The notes: generated by a model not told the origin, from the sequence alone. Positions 8,360 through 23,416 are shown, counted from the first letter of the stretch. The stretch: DNA of 64,000 nt from an uncultured Chloroflexia bacterium (GCA_963705905.1 OY970123.1:839921-903920); one strand, 5' to 3'. A program made the numbers and translations.

Positions 8360-8435
8360 TGGTGGAGATAGGGGGATTCGAACCCCCGACCTCTGCGATG
8401 CGAACGCAGCGCTCTCCCAATTGAGCTATATCCCC
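8360..8435 (-). tRNA. tRNA-Ala (anticodon CGC)
   Basis: Reverse complement GGGGATATAGCTCAATTGGGAGAGCGCTGCGTTCGCATCGCAGAGGTCGGGGGTTCGAATCCCCCTATCTCCACCA; G3:U70 pair, anticodon loop TTCGCAT, TPsiC arm GGTTCGAATCC, encoded CCA. Confidence 0.85.
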
Positions 8436-8992: not shown

Positions 8993-9289
8993 TTAGCGTG
9001 ATTTATTGGGACGGGTTTTGGCATAACAGGTCGCGCAGTAAACGGGCCTGTCATCGCGGGGCTCAAAGGGGACTTCAGTGGCCTGTCCGCATTCAGCGCA
9101 GACGGCCGCGGTCATTTTGCGGGGTCCTCGGCTGCTGCCGCCGTCCATGCGCCTGGCCTGGCGGCAGGTGGGGCAGCGTTTAGGTTCGTTGGTGTAACCC
9201 TTGGACGCGAAGAACTCCTGTTCCTTGGCAGTGAATGTAAAACTATTCCCGCATTCGGAGCATTTGATGTCTTTATCCTGGAAACTCAC
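8993..9289 (-). CDS. double zinc-ribbon protein
   Basis: Two CxxC...CxxC units (CSECG...CPTCR and CAECG...CATC); co-directional with the RRM gene. Confidence 0.5.
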   Translation of the reverse strand: MSFQDKDIKCSECGNSFTFTAKEQEFFASKGYTNEPKRCPTCRQARRMDGGSSRGPRKMTAAVCAECGQATEVPFEPRDDRPVYCATCYAKTRPNKSR

Positions 9290-9467
9290 CGGATAACCTC
9301 CTACGTGTTAGTTGGTTAGAGCTACGGTCATCCAGCGTTTGAGAAAATAGCGAATATTTTAACTTAATACCCGATAACCTTAAAACTTCAACCACCAGTT
9401 TCAAGTATACGGTAAAAAAAGCCCTTTGTAAAAAATTTGGCCTCTATTAACGCCTTTATGAAGGCGG

Positions 9468-10166
9468 TCAGGCAGCTTCGAGGATGATCCTGGCGTCGAC
9501 TGCCATCGCCCCGTCCTTGTAAGCAAATACGGGGTTGAGATCAAGCTCTTTAATCTCAGGGTTCTTCTCGACAAAGTCCGACACTTTCAGGATCAGGTTC
9601 TCGAGGAAAGGAATGTCGGCCGGCTCCTGCCCCCTGAAGCCTTTGAGGACGGGGAACCCTTTTATCTCGGTTATCATCTCTGCAGCGTCGCGCTTTTCCA
9701 GCGGTACAATACGGAAGGATACATCCTTCAATACCTCGACCAGGATGCCGCCCAGACCGAACATGATGACGGGTCCGAACTGTGCGTCCTTGGTCATGCC
9801 GATGATGATCTCCAGCCCCTGCCGGGCCATCTTCTGGACCGTGACACCGACTATCTTAGCTTTACGGTCGTGCTTCGTCACGTTGGCCAAAATCTCGCTG
9901 TAAGCCTTGCCAGCCTGCGTGGCATTCTGGATCCCCAGCTTGACCCCACCGACGTCGCTCTTATGGCTGATATCCGGTGAAACTATCTTCATGACGACGG
10001 GGAAACCCATCTTAGCCGCCAGCTCTACAGCCTCTTTTTTGGATGTCGCCAGCCTGGTCTCGACCACCGGGATTTTAGCTGCCTTTAATAAGTCTTTGGA
10101 TTCGATTTCGGTGAGCAGCGTCCGTTTCTCACGCCTGGCCGCTTGTATAATTTCGGCTTTTGACAT
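9468..10166 (-). CDS. ATP-grasp protein resembling acetate--CoA ligase (ADP-forming) beta subunit
   Basis: 232 aa; pattern TEIESKDLLKAAKIPVV ... FPVVMKIVSPDISHKSDVGGV ... LDLNPV typical of ACD-beta / succinyl-CoA-synthetase-beta ATP-grasp domains. Confidence 0.55.
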   Translation of the reverse strand: MSKAEIIQAARREKRTLLTEIESKDLLKAAKIPVVETRLATSKKEAVELAAKMGFPVVMKIVSPDISHKSDVGGVKLGIQNATQAGKAYSEILANVTKHDRKAKIVGVTVQKMARQGLEIIIGMTKDAQFGPVIMFGLGGILVEVLKDVSFRIVPLEKRDAAEMITEIKGFPVLKGFRGQEPADIPFLENLILKVSDFVEKNPEIKELDLNPVFAYKDGAMAVDARIILEAA

Positions 10167-10305
10167 AATACTTCTCCTTGTATATGGTGGTATGTATGAA
10201 TATGGAACCAGTGGAAATTTGCTACATTTTAGCCAATCTGTATACCGATTGCAAAATATCAGCGTTACATTATATCATTACTTGTTTTGATTAGAGGGTC
10301 AATCA

Positions 10306-10905
10306 ATGGTTGCCGATAAGGCTCAGAATATATCATTGCTCTGCATCGCAGGCAGCCCGCGCCGCGGGGGCAATACCGACAGGCTACTCGATGAAGCCGT
10401 GAAGGGCGCCGCCTCCAAAGGGGCACGTGTCAAACATATAACTCTTAACGACCTGGAGATAGCCGCCTGCCAGCACTGCGACGGCTGCATCCAGACCGGG
10501 GGTATCTGTGCCATAGCGGACGACATGCAGTGGCTGCTGGCCGACCTCAGGGAATTCGACCGTTTCATACTTGCCTCACCTGTATTCTTTATGGGGGTTA
10601 CCGCTCAAACCAAGGCCATGATCGACCGCTGCCAGGCGCTCTGGGTCATCAAATACCTCCTTAAATTGCCTGTCGGCCTGAAAAAGGATGTGGAGCGCAA
10701 AGGAGCATTCATTTCGGTGGGCGGACGCAGTCACGATAACCTGTTCGACGGTTCCATCGCCACGGTGAAAAGCTGGTACAACGTGCTCGACGCCGAATAT
10801 AGCGGAGAGTTGCTGGTCAGGGGCATAGACCATTTCAACGACATAGAAGCCAATCCCGCTGCGATCAGGGAGGCATACGCCCTGGGGCAACGGATCGTAA
10901 GCTAA
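10306..10905 (+). CDS. iron-sulfur flavoprotein / NADPH-dependent FMN reductase family
   Basis: Flavodoxin-like start LLCIAGSPRRGGNT plus compact Cys cluster CQHCDGCIQTGGIC, as in Isf-type proteins. Confidence 0.55.
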   Translation: MVADKAQNISLLCIAGSPRRGGNTDRLLDEAVKGAASKGARVKHITLNDLEIAACQHCDGCIQTGGICAIADDMQWLLADLREFDRFILASPVFFMGVTAQTKAMIDRCQALWVIKYLLKLPVGLKKDVERKGAFISVGGRSHDNLFDGSIATVKSWYNVLDAEYSGELLVRGIDHFNDIEANPAAIREAYALGQRIVS

Positions 10906-10928
10906 ATATAGTCCTCAAGGAGGGACCG

Positions 10929-12072
10929 ATGGATTTCTATCTGAGTGAAGAACAGAAAATGTTCCAGGCGATGGTGCGCGATTTCGCTAACAACGTGGTC
11001 AAGCCCGAGGCCAACAAAATCGACGAGGAAGGCAAGTTCCCGGCGGAGATATTTAAAAAAGCGGCCGAACTGGGGATTTTCGGCATAACCATCGACGAGA
11101 AATACGGCGGCAGCGGCGGGGACTATCTTTCCATGACCATATGCTGCGAAGAGCTTTCCCGCGCCTCGGCGGCCATGGGCACAATCTTCCTGGCCGATCT
11201 CTCACTGGCCTGTTACCCGATCTACAAGTTCGGCAATGACGAACAGAAAAAGAAATTCGTAACGCCGGTAGCCAAAGGCGAGAAACTCTGCTGCTTCGCT
11301 CTGACCGAGCCGGGCGCCGGCAGCGACGCAGCCGCCCTGCAGACTACGGCTACACGCGAAGGCGACTATTTCGTACTTAACGGAAACAAGATTTTTATTA
11401 CCAACGGGGACGAAGCTGCCGTCACAGTGGTTTTTGCGACTGAGGATAAATCTAAAGGCCACAAAGGGCATTTCGGCCTTCATAGTGGAAAAAGGAACAC
11501 CCGGATACTCCGTCGGCAAGCTGGAACATAAGATGGGCATACACGGCTCCTCGACAGCCGAGCTGGTCTTTGAAAACTGCAAAATACCCAAGTCAAACCT
11601 GCTGGGTGAACCCGGCAAAGGAATACGGTATGCGCTGGAATCGATCGATTCCAGCCGCGTCACGGTGGCCGCCCAGGCGCTGGGCATCGCCCAGGCCGCT
11701 TTCGACGATGCTCTGGCTTATGCGCAGACCCGCGTCCAGTTCGGCAAGCCCCTCTGTCAGCACCAGGCCATCCAGTGGATGCTGGCCGATATGGCGACAC
11801 AGATAGATGCTGCCCGCATGATGGTTTACCGCGCCGCCTGGCTTAAGGACAGGGGAGTGCATTTCATGAAGGAAGCCGCCATGGCCAAGCTCTTCGCCGG
11901 CGAGGTTTCGTCTTTCGTGACCAATAAGGCCGTTCAGATACACGGCGGCTACGGCTACTGCAGGGACTATCCAGTGGAACGCTACCTGCGGGACGCCAAG
12001 ATAACCGAGATCTACGAAGGGACTTCCGAAATGCAGCGCATGACCATTGCCAGGGCGCTGACCAGCCAGTAG
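10929..12072 (+). CDS. acyl-CoA dehydrogenase, apparent +1 frameshift in a GGG run near 11466
   Basis: ORFs 10929-11531 and 11434-12072 together cover a complete ACAD. The junction reads KSKGHKG / [23 protein letters not shown] in two frames; one extra g in aaagggcat explains it. Confidence 0.8.
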
Positions 12073-15656: not shown

Positions 15657-16634
15657 TCAGTCTACCAGTTCAAATGTCTGGCCTATTTGTTTCCAGGTCT
15701 CCAAGCGGGTGGCAGCATAGGCCTCGGTACTGACGGCCCCGAAGAATATGTAGCGGCTGCCCTTCTTGAATCCGAACGTGTAAAATTCATACGAGGGAGA
15801 GGCAGCCGACTCTGAATCGTAGATGTATTCTGAGGCGGGAGTTACCCCATCCGCCAGCGTGGTGGTGTTATCTGTGGAAACCAGCTTGGGATTCGGCCGT
15901 CCGCCGGCTACACGTACAGCACTTTTGGCAAATTCCAGCACAACATCTGTCGGGTCTATACCATAAGAACTTGCGATGGCGACCATGATCATATCGTAAG
16001 TGGTGTTGCCCGTAGAAGAGACAGCGACAAAGTCGGCGCCATTGACCGGCAACTGCTTGACCTGGTAGACCTGGGGATACTTGAGCACAAAATGGTAAGT
16101 ATCGTTTTTGTACTCGGTATACGCCCAGGGCGGGAGCGGGGTCGCTTTCTTAACCGGGCCGCCGTTGGCGGTTGTAGATACGGGGGCAGGTTTTACTACA
16201 ATGGTAACCTTTACAGTCTGCGGGGACTGGTCGGCCCCGGCCCCCTCAACATTTATATTTCCGGTGTATGTGCCTGCCTTTAAAGTTGAAGCTGAAATAT
16301 GCACTTTAACGGTGGACATGGTAAGCCTTTCCAATGAGCCGCTGGTATCTTCCATCCACATCCATGGATAAGTGGCAGTAGCGGCCCAGATCATTATCCC
16401 TCCACCTTCATTGTGAACATTGACTGTCTCATCGCGGGTCATGGTATCCCCTTCTGTGAATTGTTCATCTATGGTTGGGGGATCGACTGTGAGCAACGGC
16501 GCCGTACTTGAGGTATCCTGAGCCACGGGCGCTGGTGCGGCGGCGGGGGACGAGCAAGCGGCAATTGCAGCCGGTATCAAAATAAGGAGAGAAAAGACAA
16601 TAGCCTTTAATAATGAACTTCGGTTTTGCATCAT
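15657..16634 (-). CDS. secreted lipoprotein, hypothetical
   Basis: Signal peptide with lipobox (AIAACS), Ala/Pro-rich linker, beta-rich body. Confidence 0.5.
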   Translation of the reverse strand: MMQNRSSLLKAIVFSLLILIPAAIAACSSPAAAPAPVAQDTSSTAPLLTVDPPTIDEQFTEGDTMTRDETVNVHNEGGGIMIWAATATYPWMWMEDTSGSLERLTMSTVKVHISASTLKAGTYTGNINVEGAGADQSPQTVKVTIVVKPAPVSTTANGGPVKKATPLPPWAYTEYKNDTYHFVLKYPQVYQVKQLPVNGADFVAVSSTGNTTYDMIMVAIASSYGIDPTDVVLEFAKSAVRVAGGRPNPKLVSTDNTTTLADGVTPASEYIYDSESAASPSYEFYTFGFKKGSRYIFFGAVSTEAYAATRLETWKQIGQTFELVD

Positions 16635-16704
16635 AATAATTTCACCTGATTTATACTATTATAACAACTGAAACGTCAAATTCTTCAATAAAGTTGCGCG
16701 GTAT

Positions 16705-16740
16705 GAGTAGCGTTGCCCCCGGGGGAATTCGAAACCCTCA
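16705..16740 (-). repeat. degenerate tRNA 3-prime-end-like fragment (possible distal att remnant)
   Basis: tgcccccgggggaattcgaaaccct matches the 3-prime end of the tRNA-Glu at 23341 (tgcccccaagggaattcgaatccct) at 22/25 positions in the same orientation, but the T-stem cannot pair and there is no CCA. Confidence 0.3.
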
Positions 16741-16782
16741 AATACCCGGTAGCCCTGGTAGAGCCTCCAAATAGACTTAAAC

Positions 16783-18363
16783 TCAATATTCCGCGTCCGA
16801 ACGGTTGTTGTGGGTCCAGTGCCAGCGCGTGGTTGTGGCGTCGGCCAGGGGCTTGATATAACGGGCATCGCTGAGCTGCTGCAGAGTATCTTGTACGAGC
16901 TTTGGCTGTGCACCGGTCTGCCGTGTAATCCGTTCGGCCAGGACCTGCACGCTTGAATCGCCATTGTTAAAAACGCCATGACGCTCGATGAGATCGGTGC
17001 TCAGAAGTTTGAAGACCAGTTGCATGCGGTTGTGGCCGGCCACGTGCAGGCCTTCGTAATCGGTACATGTTCCTTCTTCATACCTTTTGACCTTGCAGTC
17101 CCAACGATCGCGCTCCCTGGCGTCATGTTTCTTCATGAAATCGGCCACATAGGTTTCGCTCATGCGGGAAGTCCGTACGATGGGGACATTGGCATCATAG
17201 AGGTCCCAGTCGTCCGTGAGGATCTCGATATCGTATTTTTCCTTCTCCTCCCTTACGGTCGTCCCGGGAAATGGCGCCAGGAGGTGAAAACCATAGTCGA
17301 TGCCGAGTCCTTCGGCAAAGGTATAGCTGTCAGCTATGGTCTCCGGGCTCTCGCCGGGCAGGCCGATCATGAACGAGGCAAATGCATCGACACCGCTTTC
17401 TTTGCAGGCTTGCACCGCTTTGACAGCCTGTTCCATGGTGATTCCTTTTTTCACGCGTTTGAGCATCTCGGCGTTGCCGGACTCGATCCCGAAGCTCACC
17501 GTGTCGCAGCCAGCCTCGCGCATAATAGCGAGTATCTCGGCATCCACTGTGTTCACACGGGCGAAGGCGCTCCATGTAATCTTGATGCCGCGGCGTTTGA
17601 GCTCATCGCAGAAGTCCCGGACGCGGTCCTTATTTGAGGTGAAGAGGTCGTCGGCGATGTTGATGCGCGTGAACCCGTAGGAGACGATGTCCTCGATCTC
17701 ATTCACGATAAGTCGCGGGGTGCGGTAGCGGACCTTATGGCCCACCATGCGCCGGCCCAGGCAGAAGATGCACTGGTTGGGGCAGCCTCGCGACGTGATG
17801 ATGCTGACCGGAAATCCCAGGGCCAGGTAACGGGATATGGGCAGCAGGTGGCGCGCCGGTACCGGCAGTGTATCAAGATCCTCGATAAAGGCGCGCACAC
17901 CGGTGAAATGTGCCTGTCCGTTCTTGCGGAAGGCAATCCCCTTGACCATATCCCATGCTGCCCGCTCCCGGATGACCGGCAGAAGTTCACGCAGGGTCTC
18001 TTCGCCTTCGCCCACGACGATTAAATCGATTTCCGGGTAATTTTTCAAGGTATCGGCCCAATCGTAGGAGACATGCGGCCCGCCCATCATGGTGATGATA
18101 GCGGGGTTGTGGCGCTTGACGTCCTGGATGATGGCCGCAGCGCCTTTGAAGTTCATTGTTACCGAGGTGGCGCCTACCACATCCGGTGCGAATTCGTCGA
18201 GTTCGGCTGCGAGCTTTTCCTTCGTGTAGCGACGCACGATATAATCGAATATCCTGACCTCGCAGCCGGCCTGCTCACAGGCGGCAGCGACATATGTGAC
18301 GCCCAGTGGTGGCGATGGGGCTTCTTCGAGGGGATAGGGCGGAGCGATGATGGAGATCTTCAT
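16783..18363 (-). CDS. B12-binding radical SAM protein
   Basis: N-terminal cobalamin-binding-like domain, CxxxCxxC cluster SRGCPNQCIFC; 526 aa. Confidence 0.8.
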   Translation of the reverse strand: MKISIIAPPYPLEEAPSPPLGVTYVAAACEQAGCEVRIFDYIVRRYTKEKLAAELDEFAPDVVGATSVTMNFKGAAAIIQDVKRHNPAIITMMGGPHVSYDWADTLKNYPEIDLIVVGEGEETLRELLPVIRERAAWDMVKGIAFRKNGQAHFTGVRAFIEDLDTLPVPARHLLPISRYLALGFPVSIITSRGCPNQCIFCLGRRMVGHKVRYRTPRLIVNEIEDIVSYGFTRINIADDLFTSNKDRVRDFCDELKRRGIKITWSAFARVNTVDAEILAIMREAGCDTVSFGIESGNAEMLKRVKKGITMEQAVKAVQACKESGVDAFASFMIGLPGESPETIADSYTFAEGLGIDYGFHLLAPFPGTTVREEKEKYDIEILTDDWDLYDANVPIVRTSRMSETYVADFMKKHDARERDRWDCKVKRYEEGTCTDYEGLHVAGHNRMQLVFKLLSTDLIERHGVFNNGDSSVQVLAERITRQTGAQPKLVQDTLQQLSDARYIKPLADATTTRWHWTHNNRSDAEY

Positions 18364-18530
18364 ATTCAGTCGCCTGCGGCCGTTAAATAGCCTGAACGAG
18401 TCAAGACGGGTAAAGTATACGCCTTGATCAGACGGCTATCCAGTTCTCGGTGGGATCGGCTGGCTGACCGAATACAACCCACAGCCGAATCAACATATAT
18501 GGGAATATAGGTTTTTGGGGCATCAAGGCG

Positions 18531-18752
18531 ATGCTCGACCAGTTAGGTGTCGAGACAGGCTTAACCTGTAACCCTCACACCTTTAGGCGCAAGTTTGCGG
18601 TGCTGTTAAGGAAGGCCGGTGTAGATACCATGACTATCAAAGAATTCGGTCGATGGGAGAGCTTGGAAATGGTACAGCGATATACCAGATCATTCAGCTT
18701 CCAGGATAGTATGAAGTTTTATAAGTCGCCTTTAGAAACATTACTTGATTAA
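18531..18752 (+). pseudogene. tyrosine recombinase/integrase C-terminal fragment
   Basis: 73 codons ending with HTFRRKFAVLL...GRWESLEMVQRYTR, the box II/catalytic Tyr region of phage integrases. The N-terminal ~300 codons are absent (only 167 nt separate it from the radical SAM start). Confidence 0.6.
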
Positions 18753-19076
18753 TATACTGGGTCTTGATACATCAAAATTGTTCAGGGCATTCTAATGGAG
18801 ACCACCCACAAGTCTTTGAAGAGTAAAAAGGCCGGCTTGAGTAGGTCTCTTCCTTATTCGCTTTGCCAGATTTAAGTTTAGATTTTGAGACAAACTGGAA
18901 TTGAGTCTCTTGTTTCATGGGATAATTTGAACATGGATTTATATTACCGTAGAGCCATAACCAGTAACATATATTCTGTTTATCACACAATAGTAATCAA
19001 CCTCCCATCATTAACCGCATGTATTATACACCTATGCACAACCGATGGGAATAGGGTTTCGACATATCCCTATTCT

Positions 19077-19150
19077 TGGAAATGGTACAGAGGTATACTC
19101 GTTCTTTCAGCTTTCAGGATAGTATGAGATTTTACAGATCACCGCTTTAA
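19077..19150 (+). repeat. second, diverged copy of an integrase 3-prime end
   Basis: About 75% nt identity to 18664-18745; encodes EMVQRYTRSFSFQDSMRFYRSPL-stop. Preceded by a perfect 8-bp-stem hairpin gaataggg-tttcgacata-ccctattc at 19050-19075. Confidence 0.5.
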
Positions 19151-19261
19151 CGTATGTCATTCTCACAACGCTGTGAATAGCATTTCTGGGACGTAAAGCT
19201 TGGCAGGTGGGTGAATCCAGTGTTATTGTCATTACAGTTAGCGTTATATATGGTAGGGCAT

Positions 19262-19540
19262 ATGGGGGATATGATGCCGGAGTTGAATAACTACTGTCCA
19301 GAATGCTATCAGAATATCCAGTACGGCATACAGAAATGCCCATATTGTGGATGTCCGATTAATTGGGGGATACCGCCGCAAGAGATAGTCCAACCACCGG
19401 TGCATATATCGCAGCAACAGGCAGCTGCATCGAAAAGAACCGGAGGGGGTATCATATGTGTTCATTGTGGCAATTCAATAATACCTGTAAAAAGCAATTT
19501 TGGTTGTGTTTTTTTAATTTGTTCGGCATCGTTTACTTAA
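19262..19540 (+). CDS. small zinc-ribbon protein, possibly continued by ORF 19363-19602 through a T7 frameshift
   Basis: CPECY...CPYCGCP ribbon, then CVHCG. A second frame encodes a TM helix and CPVCKKK; the frames meet at a t7 run near 19483. Confidence 0.3.
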   Translation: MGDMMPELNNYCPECYQNIQYGIQKCPYCGCPINWGIPPQEIVQPPVHISQQQAAASKRTGGGIICVHCGNSIIPVKSNFGCVFLICSASFT

Positions 19541-19847
19541 TTTACTATGCCATCAAAAAAGCCGATATTTGCCCTGTATGTAAGAAGAAGGCCTACAAAT
19601 AGCCCTGGGGAAAAACCTTTGTTTAGCCAACCATATAAACAGTGGCAACTGGCACAAAGGTAAGGGTAGATTGGAAATATGCCAAGAAAAACAATCTCCG
19701 CTATATGCAAATATTGAGCTATTTTATGAGAGCTTATCTCAAATTGCTTCTGTCTGGGGTTTGGTGATTACATTGGGGAAGGCAATATGTCGATTTCAAT
19801 GTGAGCGGTAAAATGGGGAATTCATTCCGGACTTGATAGCGTCTGGT

Positions 19848-20852
19848 TTATCTATATGGGTTAAGGTCTACTTTGTATACAGCATCGGTAATCTCAGAAA
19901 GCTTTTGCTCAAACTCAGCGGCTGTCGGCTCTTTCAAATCTATGTGCTTCAAATCCTTCAGTAGTTCTGGCTTTTCACAGTCATCCACTAATATGGGTAT
20001 GACTGTGAATTTCTCGTTTAAGGCTTTTGCAAGTGCTGTGTTCATCTCTTTGGTGCACCAATCTGATGAACTGTAACGGCTCTCAAGAAGTATCAAGCAA
20101 GCATCACATTCCTTAAAGCCTTCTCCTATTTTGCCCACCACTGAATCGCCAGCTTTAATCTCCCATTTATCGAACCACACTTCCATCCCCTGCTCTGACA
20201 ATCGCTGTGCAATAGTATCTGCTACTTGCTCCGCTTTGCTCAACTTCTTGTAAGATAGAAAAACTTTGTGGCCTCTAGGTCTTTGGCCTGGCTGACCACT
20301 TATAGCCCTTATCCTATTTGCTAAGTCTTCCCATGCTTGCTTCTTGACCCAGGAAGCAATATTACTCACAACAAGCTGCTGCGACCGAGATAAGGAATCC
20401 CACGATATGTCTACTTGACTTATCTGACCTGGTGCCGCTTGAAAGGCATAACGGATGCTCAGTTGACTGGGCATTCCTATAGGTGGCTTAGTCAAATAAT
20501 GAACTAAGATTTCATCAATGGTAGGCACAATTTTTAGAGACTCGCGGTTGTCCACATCTATCTCGTACGATCGTAAGAGCGGAGCAACCACTTTCTCCAA
20601 AGTCCCCAACTTTTGGCAAATTTCAAGCGGCAATTGTGTCCAGTCAGCCAACCTGATGCGCCCAGATAATTGAACAACGTCAAAGAAATTCCCATCATCT
20701 TCCTGGGTTAGCGGAGTATAAAATATGTTTAGCTCATTCTGTCGCCCAGCCCAACTTCTTATATAGAAATTGTACCCAAATTCCAGGTCTAAGATTCTCC
20801 TAGACGAAGCAGCCTTCCTACTCTCCACCGAGCCTGAACTTCCTGAACTCAT
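19848..20852 (-). CDS. TIR-domain protein with uncharacterised ~190-aa N-terminal domain
   Basis: C-terminal KVFLSYKK ... DACLILLESRYSSSDWCTKEMNTALA ... IPILVDD matches the TIR beta-A, catalytic-Glu and beta-D regions; N-terminal half has no motif I can assign. Confidence 0.75.
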   Translation of the reverse strand: MSSGSSGSVESRKAASSRRILDLEFGYNFYIRSWAGRQNELNIFYTPLTQEDDGNFFDVVQLSGRIRLADWTQLPLEICQKLGTLEKVVAPLLRSYEIDVDNRESLKIVPTIDEILVHYLTKPPIGMPSQLSIRYAFQAAPGQISQVDISWDSLSRSQQLVVSNIASWVKKQAWEDLANRIRAISGQPGQRPRGHKVFLSYKKLSKAEQVADTIAQRLSEQGMEVWFDKWEIKAGDSVVGKIGEGFKECDACLILLESRYSSSDWCTKEMNTALAKALNEKFTVIPILVDDCEKPELLKDLKHIDLKEPTAAEFEQKLSEITDAVYKVDLNPYR

Positions 20853-21070
20853 CTTTCAAAGTTCCCGTTATATAGCTACATCATGCAGATCGTGCTTTAA
20901 AACTTCCTGTATTATACTGCTGCTAATGTTGTGTTATCCATTAAACTATCCGTCAATTTATATAATTGTTAGGGTAACTTAATATAGAGAATGTGATATT
21001 TACCCATTTTAACTGAGGATAGATCGTTATTCCTTATTAGGGTGGTCCATATAACTAAGCAGGATTATTG

Positions 21071-21625
21071 CTATCTATTAAGCCACGGGCAACTATTGAT
21101 GGGCAACTGATCATAGAATTCTGCAAATGACGGGCTGTTGTTTTTTATATGGCCTGCTCTACATTTAACCAGGAGATCAACACCATCTGTTGTCTCATGA
21201 TACATTCGCAAATGTTTCTTAATGACAGTTTTGCCTTTACGACCTTCATAACTAATTGTTATTTCCTTCACTTTATATTCACACTGGTTAACAATTTCTC
21301 TGTCAGCTAAAATCCAGTTCTCGATCGTCCGGTCAGTCACTCCAATGATGATAGTATCTACTATTCCCAGTTGCTCCAGTAGAGAATGGAGCGAAGAGGA
21401 TATTTCCTGTGATGTTTCTCGCCGATCCTCCCTGTCAATTACAACGATAATTGGATAGTATCTGTTATTAAAAAGTCTGCAATGGGTCTCAATACGTTCT
21501 GCAATTGCCGATAGCGACACATTGTGGCCATTACACTCAAGTCTTTGCACAGGACGGCCAGGACACGATTTTTGAATAAACTTCTGTTCAAGGTGTCCGT
21601 CGACGAGAAATGCCGCTTTATTCAT
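21071..21625 (-). CDS. Toprim-like small protein (DUF4276/RloB/AriB-type partner)
   Basis: 184 aa; LVDGHLEQKF (h-x-EG-x-x-E) and IVVIDREDRRE acidic motifs as in OLD-family Toprim domains. Start overlaps the upstream ATPase stop by 8 nt. Confidence 0.55.
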   Translation of the reverse strand: MNKAAFLVDGHLEQKFIQKSCPGRPVQRLECNGHNVSLSAIAERIETHCRLFNNRYYPIIVVIDREDRRETSQEISSSLHSLLEQLGIVDTIIIGVTDRTIENWILADREIVNQCEYKVKEITISYEGRKGKTVIKKHLRMYHETTDGVDLLVKCRAGHIKNNSPSFAEFYDQLPINSCPWLNR

Positions 21626-22973
21626 TGTTCAAGCTACCAGATAGATAGTAATAGCCTAATCCAAAACCAGTTTTCTGTATCTCTTTAGTTAGGGCTGCGG
21701 CATTAGAAACGCGTTTAGCTGTCGTTTTTCCATTAGCACAAGAGATAACGATGATTTCCTTTGGTACCGCATTATTTAGTAAGGTCTCACTATGCGTGGA
21801 CATAAGGATGAATCTATCTTTTTTCATGTGCTCCCGCATAATCAATATTATTTCAGATAGCATATGTGGATGAAGATAATTCTCGGGTTCCTCAATAGCG
21901 AACATATTTTGATTTGTTAAAATGATTGTTATCAATGCTATCCATTTCACTGTACCATCCGACATGGAAGAAAGAGGGAGTATAGTGGGCTTACCGGTAC
22001 CTTTTAGAGTAACTCGAACCTGCAATTGCTGGTCAAATGGATTGTTCGAAACAACGATATTAGATATCCATTCGTTTGCAAGCTGCGTGTATCGCAAAAT
22101 ATTTGCTGTAGAAGCATCACTTCTGGGGATTGCATGCCGATAGGTTGGCAGATACCTATAGGTTGGCAGATAATCGTACTTTTGCCGGTTGACGCCCTCG
22201 TATTTTTGTATCGCGTACAATGTCGAATATAAACCAGAGCCATCTTTACTGACACCTGCTTTTTTAGCACTATCATCTGGCATCTTTGCTTTAGATGGTT
22301 CAATGTTATAGACTTCACCACCTCTGATGTCATTATTAATGGGATAATAGAAGTCACGAATAATCATACTCAAGACAGTAATGACGCTTTGGTCTGGATC
22401 CAGGTTGTCGAGATATTGTATTATCCTTCTTTTAATATCCGCTTTACCATATTTACGTCTCGCATCATAAGGATTATTTAATTCCTTTATTTTTTCGTTG
22501 ATAGCGGAGATTGTAGGCTTGGATTTTGAATTATCATCTACATTTAACGCAATTGCTAAATCGTAATCGCTACTTCGTATCTTGTTTATAGAGTCGACTG
22601 CTCTTAGTTTTAACGATAACTTTTGTTCCGAATAAATTATTGGCTCTCCAGATACGCGTAAAAGTATTCTGAACGAATATTGATAGTATAAATACTTTCT
22701 AGCCTCAAGTTTCACCGTGCCAGTTATCGTTGCACTGATGTTATCCTGATATTCTTTTTCTCCTATTTTCCGAAATATAGTACCTGCACCTCCAGATTTA
22801 CTGATGGCATCTGAAATATGCATATACTGGAGATAACCGAGGAATTCGAAAAAAGAAATAATATTTGTCTTGCCTGATCCATTGGGTCCAACAAGGATAT
22901 TTAGACCCGATTTCAGATCCATTTCGAATTTATGAAGAGTCTTGAAACCGTTTACTTTAATATGTTTAATCAT
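21618..22973 (-). CDS. split ABC-type ATPase (AAA_21/AAA_15 family; OLD/AbiLi/AriA-like)
   Basis: Walker A GPNGSGKT near the N-terminus, long insert, then IEEPENYLHPHM and H-loop LMSTHSE at the C-terminus; 451 aa. Confidence 0.8.
   Translation of the reverse strand: MIKHIKVNGFKTLHKFEMDLKSGLNILVGPNGSGKTNIISFFEFLGYLQYMHISDAISKSGGAGTIFRKIGEKEYQDNISATITGTVKLEARKYLYYQYSFRILLRVSGEPIIYSEQKLSLKLRAVDSINKIRSSDYDLAIALNVDDNSKSKPTISAINEKIKELNNPYDARRKYGKADIKRRIIQYLDNLDPDQSVITVLSMIIRDFYYPINNDIRGGEVYNIEPSKAKMPDDSAKKAGVSKDGSGLYSTLYAIQKYEGVNRQKYDYLPTYRYLPTYRHAIPRSDASTANILRYTQLANEWISNIVVSNNPFDQQLQVRVTLKGTGKPTILPLSSMSDGTVKWIALITIILTNQNMFAIEEPENYLHPHMLSEIILIMREHMKKDRFILMSTHSETLLNNAVPKEIIVISCANGKTTAKRVSNAAALTKEIQKTGFGLGYYYLSGSLNNE
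22139..22174 (-). repeat. in-frame 18-bp tandem duplication inside the ATPase gene
   Basis: tatctgccaacctatagg / tatctgccaacctatcgg encodes YLPTYR YLPTYR. Confidence 0.6.
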
Positions 22974-23340
22974 TTAAAATTCCCGAAGAACCTATATTCG
23001 TGTGCATAATTACCATAATATTCGATATTATATCACTGTGTCATTGCGGATTACAGTGTATATTTTATCATTTGTAGTCATAGATTCGAATCAGGTTTAA
23101 CCTTACTAAGCTGCTCAAGCACTACTAATATCCTTATAGAAACCTGATTCCTTCAAGGCTAAGGCAATATTAAGGGTAAGAAGCCGGGGCATGACTGGGC
23201 AGTCCTTAGCTTAGATTATGAAAGGAAAAGGAAGCCAAAGAAGACTATAAAATAGTTAAGCAAATAATTACGATGGGGATGAAGCTAAAGTGTTAAGCAA
23301 ATCAGGAAAACTCAGCAATCAACGCAATCGTGGATTGAAG

Positions 23341-23416
23341 TGGTGCCCCCAAGGGAATTCGAATCCCTGTGTCCAGCTTGAAAGGCTGGTGTCCTAGGCC
23401 TCTAGACGATGGGGGC
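23341..23416 (-). tRNA. tRNA-Glu (anticodon TTC)
   Basis: Reverse complement GCCCCCATCGTCTAGAGGCCTAGGACACCAGCCTTTCAAGCTGGACACAGGGATTCGAATTCCCTTGGGGGCACCA; anticodon loop CTTTCAA, acceptor GCCCCCA/TGGGGGC, encoded CCA. Confidence 0.9.

Follow-up and report, generated by a model that had tools for sequence, protein, structure and literature searches.

A probable fixed and decayed composite of small integrative elements at the 3' end of a tRNA-Glu gene in an uncultured Chloroflexia bacterium

A 64,000-nucleotide (nt) stretch of DNA from an uncultured Chloroflexia bacterium (GCA_963705905.1 OY970123.1:839921-903920; hereafter the window) contains, between a gene for tRNA-Glu(UUC) and a lipoprotein gene, an interval (16710–23340) that can be read, with a probability of roughly 85%, as a fixed and decayed composite of small integrative elements that targeted the 3' end of that tRNA gene. 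An earlier note on the same DNA had proposed site-specific integration into the tRNA 3' end, with a partial duplicate of that end left at the far side. Integration is supported by an empty site and by intact elements in related genomes, whereas the notion of a single element with matched ends is not: the interval is the product of at least two integration events, together with deletions and the insertion of a gene for a B12-binding radical S-adenosylmethionine (SAM) protein.

The integration target, an intact tRNA-Glu(UUC) gene on the minus strand at 23341–23416, was located by ARAGORN exactly where the earlier note had placed it, and the segment of identity common to distal copies of its end comprises its last 30 nt (23341–23370). 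Scanning with the 28-mer from the tRNA 3' end gave zero mismatches in L066, L085, L092, L093, L094, L097, L099, L124 and L128, and inspection by eye indicated that the same 28-mer is also free of mismatches in L163, making ten related genomes with an intact tRNA gene. The repeat finder paired positions 23339–23368 in direct orientation with 16709–16738 (25 of 30 positions), a degenerate minus-strand copy of the tRNA 3' end that would represent the scar of a distal attachment site, and within which the same-orientation match of 22 in 25 reported previously was recovered as a core at 16714–16738. This fragment covers the 5' strand of the T-stem, the T-loop, the 3' strand of the T-stem and the 3' acceptor strand; as had been remarked before, it has no CCA, AACG replacing the ACCA of the tRNA, and it cannot fold as a T-arm, two of the five T-stem pairs being broken.

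That the resemblance is not fortuitous is indicated by a local-alignment score of 19 in a scan of the 6.7-kb interval, compared with a maximum of 14 in 30 shuffles, and by a binomial estimate in which a match of at least 22 in 25 is expected only ~7e-6 times per 128 kb. When both strands of the 64 kb were scanned by Hamming distance, every other 30-mer differed from the tRNA 3' end at more than 10 positions, and local alignment detected no additional copies above shuffle level inside the interval, including the stretch that runs from the integrase remnants described below to the radical-SAM gene; a candidate at 19040–19075, with a score of 12, was dismissed as noise. No tRNA was found at 16.7 kb by ARAGORN, or by Rfam in the region 16600–16850 at E ≤ 10; a snoRNA match returned by Rfam in that region was considered spurious, and no other plausible RNA was present at this threshold.

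The comparative set was assembled by scanning metagenome contigs with the enoyl-CoA hydratase gene located 3' of the lipoprotein gene, which gave 80 loci onto which the proteins and tRNAs of the window were mapped. The empty site that the earlier note had suggested seeking is present in L092, where the order is argC, tRNA-Glu, 34 nt, and then the ATG of the lipoprotein gene. Occupied sites with an intact element are represented by L093 and L094, each of which carries a perfect copy of the last 30 nt of the tRNA 3.5 kb from tRNA-Glu, with identity reaching ~37 nt. In front of this copy stands TGTTAAGCAATTTAGATACATTTAC, and the start of an intact integrase gene coding for 328 amino acids (aa) is 16 nt from the copy. 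The same layout is found in L086, with one mismatch in the copy and an intact 327-aa integrase. The distal copies in L093/L094 and L086 lie 22–25 nt upstream of the CTGYTATAAT box of the lipoprotein gene, and the DNA beyond them in L093 and L086, which ends in CTGCTATAAT followed by the lipoprotein ATG, shows homology to the sequence located after the tRNA in L092, a relation that is classical for attachment sites. The intact integrases have the C-terminus GRWESLEMVQRYTRSFSFQDSMKFYKSPL, which recurs unchanged in the larger integrase remnant of the window. The integrase family as a whole comprises 1488 homologues at E ≤ 1e-10, most of which combine an XRE-type helix-turn-helix (HTH) with a Phage_integrase domain, and the few with a source name come from Dehalococcoidia/Chloroflexota. 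Besides its integrase, the intact 3.5-kb element of L093 (4293–6800) codes for a handful of predicted membrane proteins of 76–167 aa, a cargo that is unusually minimal among tRNA-integrating elements. Exact searches of IMG/VR with both the fragment and the element-side attachment sequence gave zero matches, and the view of these elements as phages is therefore unsupported.

Among loci in which both tRNA-Glu and the lipoprotein gene are present, the DNA between them can be as short as 34 nt or as long as 7.6 kb, and its content differs from one locus to the next. A tandem array is evident in L167, in which the tRNA is followed by copies of 24 nt and 34 nt beside the N-terminal remnant of an integrase, while an old C-terminal integrase remnant adjoins the lipoprotein gene. 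In L044 a copy matching at 31 of 32 positions falls exactly at a boundary between DNA of low and high guanine plus cytosine (GC) content, with an N-terminal integrase remnant adjacent to it, and in L085, which of the relatives with a complete interval is the closest (92% identity in argC), a shortened copy (TTCCCTGGGGGCACCA) is fused to a C-terminal integrase remnant.

Within the window, the two decayed 3' fragments of integrase genes recognised in the earlier note were both recovered, on the plus strand, by tblastn and by a hidden Markov model (HMM) of the integrase family built on 120 homologues. Remnant 1 (18461–18749) corresponds to residues ~231–326 of the 328-aa HTH-tyrosine integrase, its 230 N-terminal codons having been lost and its frame broken near 18504–18520; it shares 75% identity over 81 aa with the L093 integrase (E 7e-38), residues 232–251 of which align at 18461–18520, and was matched by the family HMM with E values of 8e-46 (18468–18749) and 0.01 and by Pfam Phage_integrase at 6e-10. 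Remnant 2 (19040–19147) retains the last ~25–30 codons with an in-frame stop, and aligns with residues 294–322 of the L093 integrase (tblastn E 1.7e-9) and with HMM positions 298–321 (E 7.5e-11; 19055–19147). The 69 nt that the repeat finder identified as common to the two remnants are just 81% identical, and remnant 2 would accordingly derive from a second integrase gene, more diverged than that represented by remnant 1.

A third piece of integrase sequence was picked up by tblastn between the fragment and the stop codon of the radical-SAM gene. Here, at 16739–16782 on the plus strand, the translation KYPVALVEPPNRLK aligns with integrase residues ~136–153 (NPIDLVEPPKRAK), with 52% identity over 23 aa. 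When the search was confined to the 166-nt intergenic space the match had an E value of 1e-5 and scored 27.3 bits, the best of 2000 shuffles reaching 23.5, and the strand is that of remnant 1, with which it is collinear. With this moderate support, the match is probably a remnant of the integrase core-binding domain, about 14 codons in length. The radical-SAM gene would then probably lie inside one dead integrase gene, the order being scar, residues ~136–153, radical-SAM gene and residues 231–326; in that event the fragment would be linked to the islet even though the DNA between them has a host-like GC content.

No functional integrase was met with beside the attachment site in the window, only remnants. 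Because the integrase is fragmented and the displaced tRNA end has decayed to 25 of 30 positions, excision should no longer be possible, and the window copy would be a dead derivative of the element, for which neither excision nor integration activity is predicted. What does survive is the tRNA-proximal end. A motif search located exactly two copies of TTGCTTAAC in the 64 kb, both on the minus strand (23255–23263 and 23292–23300) and both 40–85 nt past the 3' end of the tRNA. The intact element of L093 has four copies 60–130 nt past the tRNA and two at the integrase-proximal end, and L086 has two at the integrase end; by inspection, L163 has two past the tRNA, and L167 has copies at its N-terminal integrase remnant. 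We infer that these are putative arm-type integrase binding sites, of which the window retains only those on the tRNA side.

At the other extremity, alignment with relatives identified the leader of the lipoprotein gene (16635–16708, minus strand) as conserved host flank, with the promoter box TGTTATAAT at 16658–16666 and the ATG at 16632–16634. A CTGYTATAAT box precedes the lipoprotein ATG in most of 26 aligned loci, a few of which have variants that differ at one or two bases. Homology with the window resumes at 16710 in L163 (97%), at 16698 in L084 and at 16691 in L166. Immediately after the fragment comes CTACTCATACCGCGCAACTTT (CTACTCATACC), a flank that continues into the promoter box and that also adjoins the lipoprotein gene in L163 and L166, and CTACTCATACC in turn resembles the sequence that follows tRNA-Glu in L124 (CTACTTTT), L066 (CTACCCC) and L163 (CTATTCTT). 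A tRNA end that had been displaced and was still attached to its original host flank should lie in just this register.

Measurements of composition agree with the earlier report of low-GC DNA to the left of the tRNA. The GC content is 35–45% over ~18.5 to 23.3 kb (4.8 kb), compared with 51–60% in most of the flanking DNA, which drops to 47–49% in some intergenic stretches; the break falls at 18.5–18.75 kb, and the part occupied by the radical-SAM gene (16.8–18.4 kb) is host-like. The earlier note had been uncertain whether to draw the outer limit at this break or at the fragment. Because the whole interval from tRNA-Glu to the lipoprotein gene is variable, the radical-SAM gene included (it is missing from L092 and L085), the doubt is resolved in favour of the outer position, and the boundary of the variable interval is set at ~16710; the GC break marks only the junction of the low-GC cargo with the radical-SAM gene. 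A target tRNA, a distal direct repeat in degenerate form, an empty site and atypical GC content, features expected of a tRNA-targeting island, are all represented.

The mechanism that we propose would begin with live elements of at least 3.5 kb, each with a tyrosine integrase of 320–330 aa bearing an N-terminal HTH at its distal end, and each carrying a 30-nt copy of the tRNA from T-stem to CCA plus ~8 further nt. Recombination with the chromosomal tRNA gene would reconstitute the tRNA with the copy brought in by the element, and the original tRNA 3' end would come to lie beyond the element, immediately 5' of the lipoprotein promoter. Later elements would likewise enter at the tRNA and shift the older ones outward, giving rise to tandem accretion. 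In the window there would remain a tRNA-proximal end with its two arm-like TTGCTTAAC sites and, between the two halves of a dead integrase gene, the radical-SAM gene, horizontally mobile among Dehalococcoidia. That the events took place in this order, and that the radical-SAM gene was inserted into the integrase gene, is what we infer from the arrangement that survives.

The radical-SAM gene identified by Pfam (16783–18363, minus strand, 526 aa; 16783–18446 with 83 nt of conserved upstream DNA) codes for a protein whose sequence is identical on L001, a contig from the European Nucleotide Archive (ENA), and whose closest relatives are found in Dehalococcoidia metagenome-assembled genomes. This places the source bacterium among the Dehalococcoidia. 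The gene is absent from L092, L093 and L085 and present in L066, L044, L124 and L163. At 87–93% nucleotide identity it also occurs in at least 10 contexts that share nothing else with the window, and in the unrelated contexts, of which there are at least 12, homology stops within ~20 nt of the gene. Its 87% identity, compared with 70–79% for the syntenic core genes around it, is conservation above that of its surroundings and suggests horizontal transfer.

As a module, the gene, up to ~85 nt of upstream DNA and ~8 nt of downstream DNA recur at 87–96% identity in L003–L013, L044, L066, L124 and L163, and L044 has in addition an isolated second copy of the last 107 nt of the gene (11378–11484). 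A tRNA-Ala 3'-end fragment (~11598–11630, antisense TGGTGGAGCTGAGGAGAATCGAACCCC) is situated 16 nt past the stop codon of the radical-SAM gene in L004, and 8.7 kb from an intact tRNA-Ala(ggc) gene (20308–20383). An integrase-like match in L003 is distant, ~8 kb downstream of the radical-SAM gene and beside the tRNA-Ala gene of that contig, and the tRNA-Ala locus of L004 and L003 has the look of another tRNA integration hotspot, bordered by the radical-SAM gene. No integrase of the present family was found near the radical-SAM gene in L004–L013, and no integrase remnants were found 3' of it in L066, L044 or L124. The gene lies 89 nt past tRNA-Glu in L124. A speculative reading of these data, which we regard as unlikely to be correct, is that the gene is a self-contained mobile cassette with sharp bounds, found in at least 14 different Dehalococcoidia contexts and apt to land at tRNA integration hotspots, as within the dead integrase gene of the window, beside tRNA-Glu in L124 and beside the tRNA-Ala scar of L004. 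If true, it would imply an undescribed form of single-gene movement into attachment-site or integrase regions, and the exact 72-nt difference from L163 described below, which ends at the CCA-equivalent position, could be the footprint of cassette movement.

Within the species the interval is not constant. The flanks of L163, L164 and L165 share 95–97% nucleotide identity with the window, and their radical-SAM gene is 92% identical to that of the window, and between the tRNA and that gene they have just one 378-aa open reading frame (ORF), situated in 1.5 kb of low-GC DNA, with no integrase remnant detected in the interval of any of the three. The ORF in question (L163 6938–8074) has no Pfam match on record and no similarity to integrase. 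These strains also lack exactly positions 16711–16782 of the window (72 nt), the radical-SAM stop codon being joined to CTACTC..., and this deletion ends at precisely the CCA-equivalent position, a coincidence that is unexplained. Several observations weigh against the interval being a decayed composite of tRNA-targeting elements, this coincidence among them. The fragment is absent not only from L163 but also from L084, L066 and L166, so that its presence is strain-specific and it is no conserved landmark; since the same-species L163 manages without it, it is best regarded as a dispensable, decaying scar and not as a functional attachment site. It has 5 mismatches in 30 from a tRNA 3' end that is invariant in the ten related genomes checked, and must therefore be old or derived from another lineage. 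In searches of wider scope the core-binding remnant (16725–16793) is not significant, with E values of 0.22 (tblastn of the whole window) and 3.5 (family HMM), and the want of an attachment-site copy between the integrase remnants and the radical-SAM gene requires that a deletion be assumed. Differences in cargo between strains could, moreover, reflect homologous recombination by way of the conserved flanks in place of integrase action.

Some of the same observations would also suit a history in which the fragment was imported as flanking DNA with the radical-SAM gene from another Dehalococcoidia lineage, as a tRNA-Glu scar or tRNA-Glu end of the donor. The gene is evidently mobile, retaining its 87–93% identity where core genes are at 70–79% or are unrelated; the window and L163 versions of it are 92% identical between flanks at 95–97%; the 72-nt block that adjoins it is strain-specific; the tRNA-Ala fragment in L004 places it beside a tRNA scar elsewhere; and five mismatches from a tRNA end invariant in relatives would fit a foreign source. 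However, the fragment and the 44 nt that precede it occur in none of the 15 other contexts of the gene, local host flank follows the fragment directly in the register of a scar formed in place, and a probable integrase remnant separates the fragment from the radical-SAM gene, so that import of this kind appears improbable.

A different origin, as the remains of a whole duplicated tRNA-Glu gene and not a partial duplicate left by integration, is suggested by the length of the strain-specific block (72 nt is close to that of a tRNA) and by short matches to the D-arm (GTCTA) and anticodon stem (ACCAG) at roughly the right spacing. This full-length reading of the block was rejected, and a pseudogene is considered very improbable: neither the Rfam tRNA model (E ≤ 10) nor ARAGORN recognised one, the block opens with ~8 nt that show homology to the end of the radical-SAM module in its other contexts, its middle reads as an integrase remnant, and the clear copies in relatives are all 3' partials of 16–38 nt. 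There is even less to recommend the fragment as a functional RNA or DNA signal, such as a terminator of the radical-SAM gene, or as a chance match to a T-loop, and we give this hardly any credence. It does lie 45 nt 3' of the radical-SAM stop and does contain a palindrome (CCCCCGGGGG), but a terminator scan of the region gave no terminator-like site and the folding energy was unexceptional (z = +0.78; 152 of 200 shuffles folded equally well or better), results that exclude a terminator or structured RNA at this position; the match, besides being unique in the window, extends beyond the T-loop to the acceptor strand. Nor is the sequence present 3' of any other radical-SAM copy examined. The earlier note had recognised that a conserved terminator, or relatives with the same gene order that lacked the island genes and yet kept the fragment, would undo its reading. 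Neither was encountered, the fragment being absent from all 15 of the other radical-SAM contexts.

The reading frames of the cargo genes are intact. The genes that had been described as defence-like are substantiated by Pfam and PADLOC matches, and the cargo they specify, an ATPase + DUF4276 pair and a TIR protein, is presumably devoted to anti-phage defence. The first, on the minus strand at 21618–22973, codes for an ABC-type ATPase of 451 aa (Pfam AAA_21 2.6e-25 and AAA_15 1.9e-16; PADLOC HEC-01A 3.4e-43). It overlaps by 8 nt the gene at 21071–21625 (minus strand) for a 184-aa DUF4276 protein, a predicted Toprim-type nuclease, for which the Pfam match of 2.9e-06 is under the gathering score (28.1 compared with 30.2 bits) and the PADLOC match to HEC-01B is 5.8e-07. 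The two adjacent genes match both profiles of HEC-01, itself a candidate system only. The DUF4276 family has been placed in the Toprim superfamily (PMC12065111), and pairs of ATPase and DUF4276 genes have been grouped with OLD/PARIS-like systems (PMC11464382).

The third cargo gene (19848–20852, minus strand) codes for a 334-aa protein with an N-terminal region to which no function is assigned and a C-terminal TIR domain (Pfam TIR_2 3.1e-27). Its best PADLOC match is PDC-S66 (1.9e-16), with weaker matches of the ThsB type (E 1e-6 to 4e-5); since no match to ThsA, the Thoeris effector with a SIR2 or membrane domain together with SLOG, was present among the ATPase, the DUF4276 protein and the zinc-ribbon ORF scanned, it is not assigned to Thoeris. 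The zinc-ribbon ORF itself (19211–19540, plus strand, 109 aa) has weak Pfam DZR/zinc-ribbon matches and falls within a block, 19094–19617, that blastn found to be shared with L066 at 86% nucleotide identity.

Diverged ATPase + DUF4276 pairs are also present at this hotspot in L085 (4129–7698) and L166 (3196–5000), with 36% identity to the window ATPase, as are TIR ORFs of the CAP12 type, in the form of a full 426-aa protein in L085 and a 105-aa ORF in L167 (8298–8615). Cargo of the same functional classes recurs at the hotspot with unrelated sequences.

Elsewhere in the window, comparison over 13.5 kb with the public 2.47-Mb ENA contig L001 revealed identity bar two single-base deletions, both outside the islet. 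These deletions, at ~25388 and ~24334, break the frames of the thiolase gene and argC; misassembly of one sequence or the other is the probable cause, the alternative being that the genes are true pseudogenes. Relative to positions ~9000–12000 of the window, L163 (13615–18353) has an extra block of ~4.7 kb between its Thiamine_BP and acyl-CoA dehydrogenase genes, comprising an enlarged dihydroorotate-dehydrogenase-like gene and a gene for a 1056-aa protein that contains an N6/N4 methyltransferase domain; at this site the window type, represented by L001, has a simple 308-aa gene. The conserved tRNA-Ala(cgc) gene at 8360–8435 is duplicated in L091 (16788–17786) and is followed in L167 (17925–20623) by a serine recombinase and insertion-sequence genes, and may be another insertion site in these genomes.

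The islet itself is ordinary textbook island biology, and current understanding is not challenged by it. The value of the tRNA-Glu hotspot lies in the states that it displays in uncultured peat and sediment Dehalococcoidia, namely an empty site, live 3.5-kb elements, tandem arrays and dead composites, each to be seen in public metagenomic data, a range of occupants that provides a natural series for how islands become fixed. It repeatedly gathers cargo of the defence type, both ATPase + DUF4276 pairs and TIR proteins, and its 30–38-nt attachment site together with the integrase family constitutes a candidate tool for genetic work in a lineage that has seen scarcely any.

Among known systems, the tRNA islands catalogued by Islander (PMC4383910) resemble this hotspot in that a regenerated, intact tRNA marks one boundary and a displaced, directly oriented 3' fragment the opposite one; they also share with it an integrase gene next to one end, atypical composition, empty sites and repeated use of the same tRNA. 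They differ in that the elements here are very small, the intact relatives being of 3.5 kb, in that the integrase has an N-terminal XRE-type HTH and is located at the end far from the tRNA, and in that the window's own integrase is in pieces, its fragment matches at 25 of 30 positions, and a foreign gene appears to lie within the integrase gene.

Within the same bacterial class, the ssrA islands of Dehalococcoides (PMC3146451) are the closest described parallel. They are likewise arranged in tandem 3' of a small RNA gene with direct repeats of its 3' end, and they carry strain-specific cargo, some having become fixed after the loss of mobility genes. Those islands rely on a CcrB-like serine recombinase module and target the tmRNA gene, with a 20-bp repeat and dehalogenase cargo (PMC3146451), in contrast to the tyrosine integrase, tRNA-Glu(UUC) target, 30–38-nt repeat and defence-like cargo of the present hotspot. 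At the level of cargo, the closest parallel is with the OLD/PARIS modules (PMC11464382, PMC12065111), with which the window shares adjacent, overlapping genes for an AAA_21/AAA_15 ATPase and a Toprim-type partner on a mobile island; the partner in PARIS, AriB, has the domain DUF4435, whereas that in the window is DUF4276.

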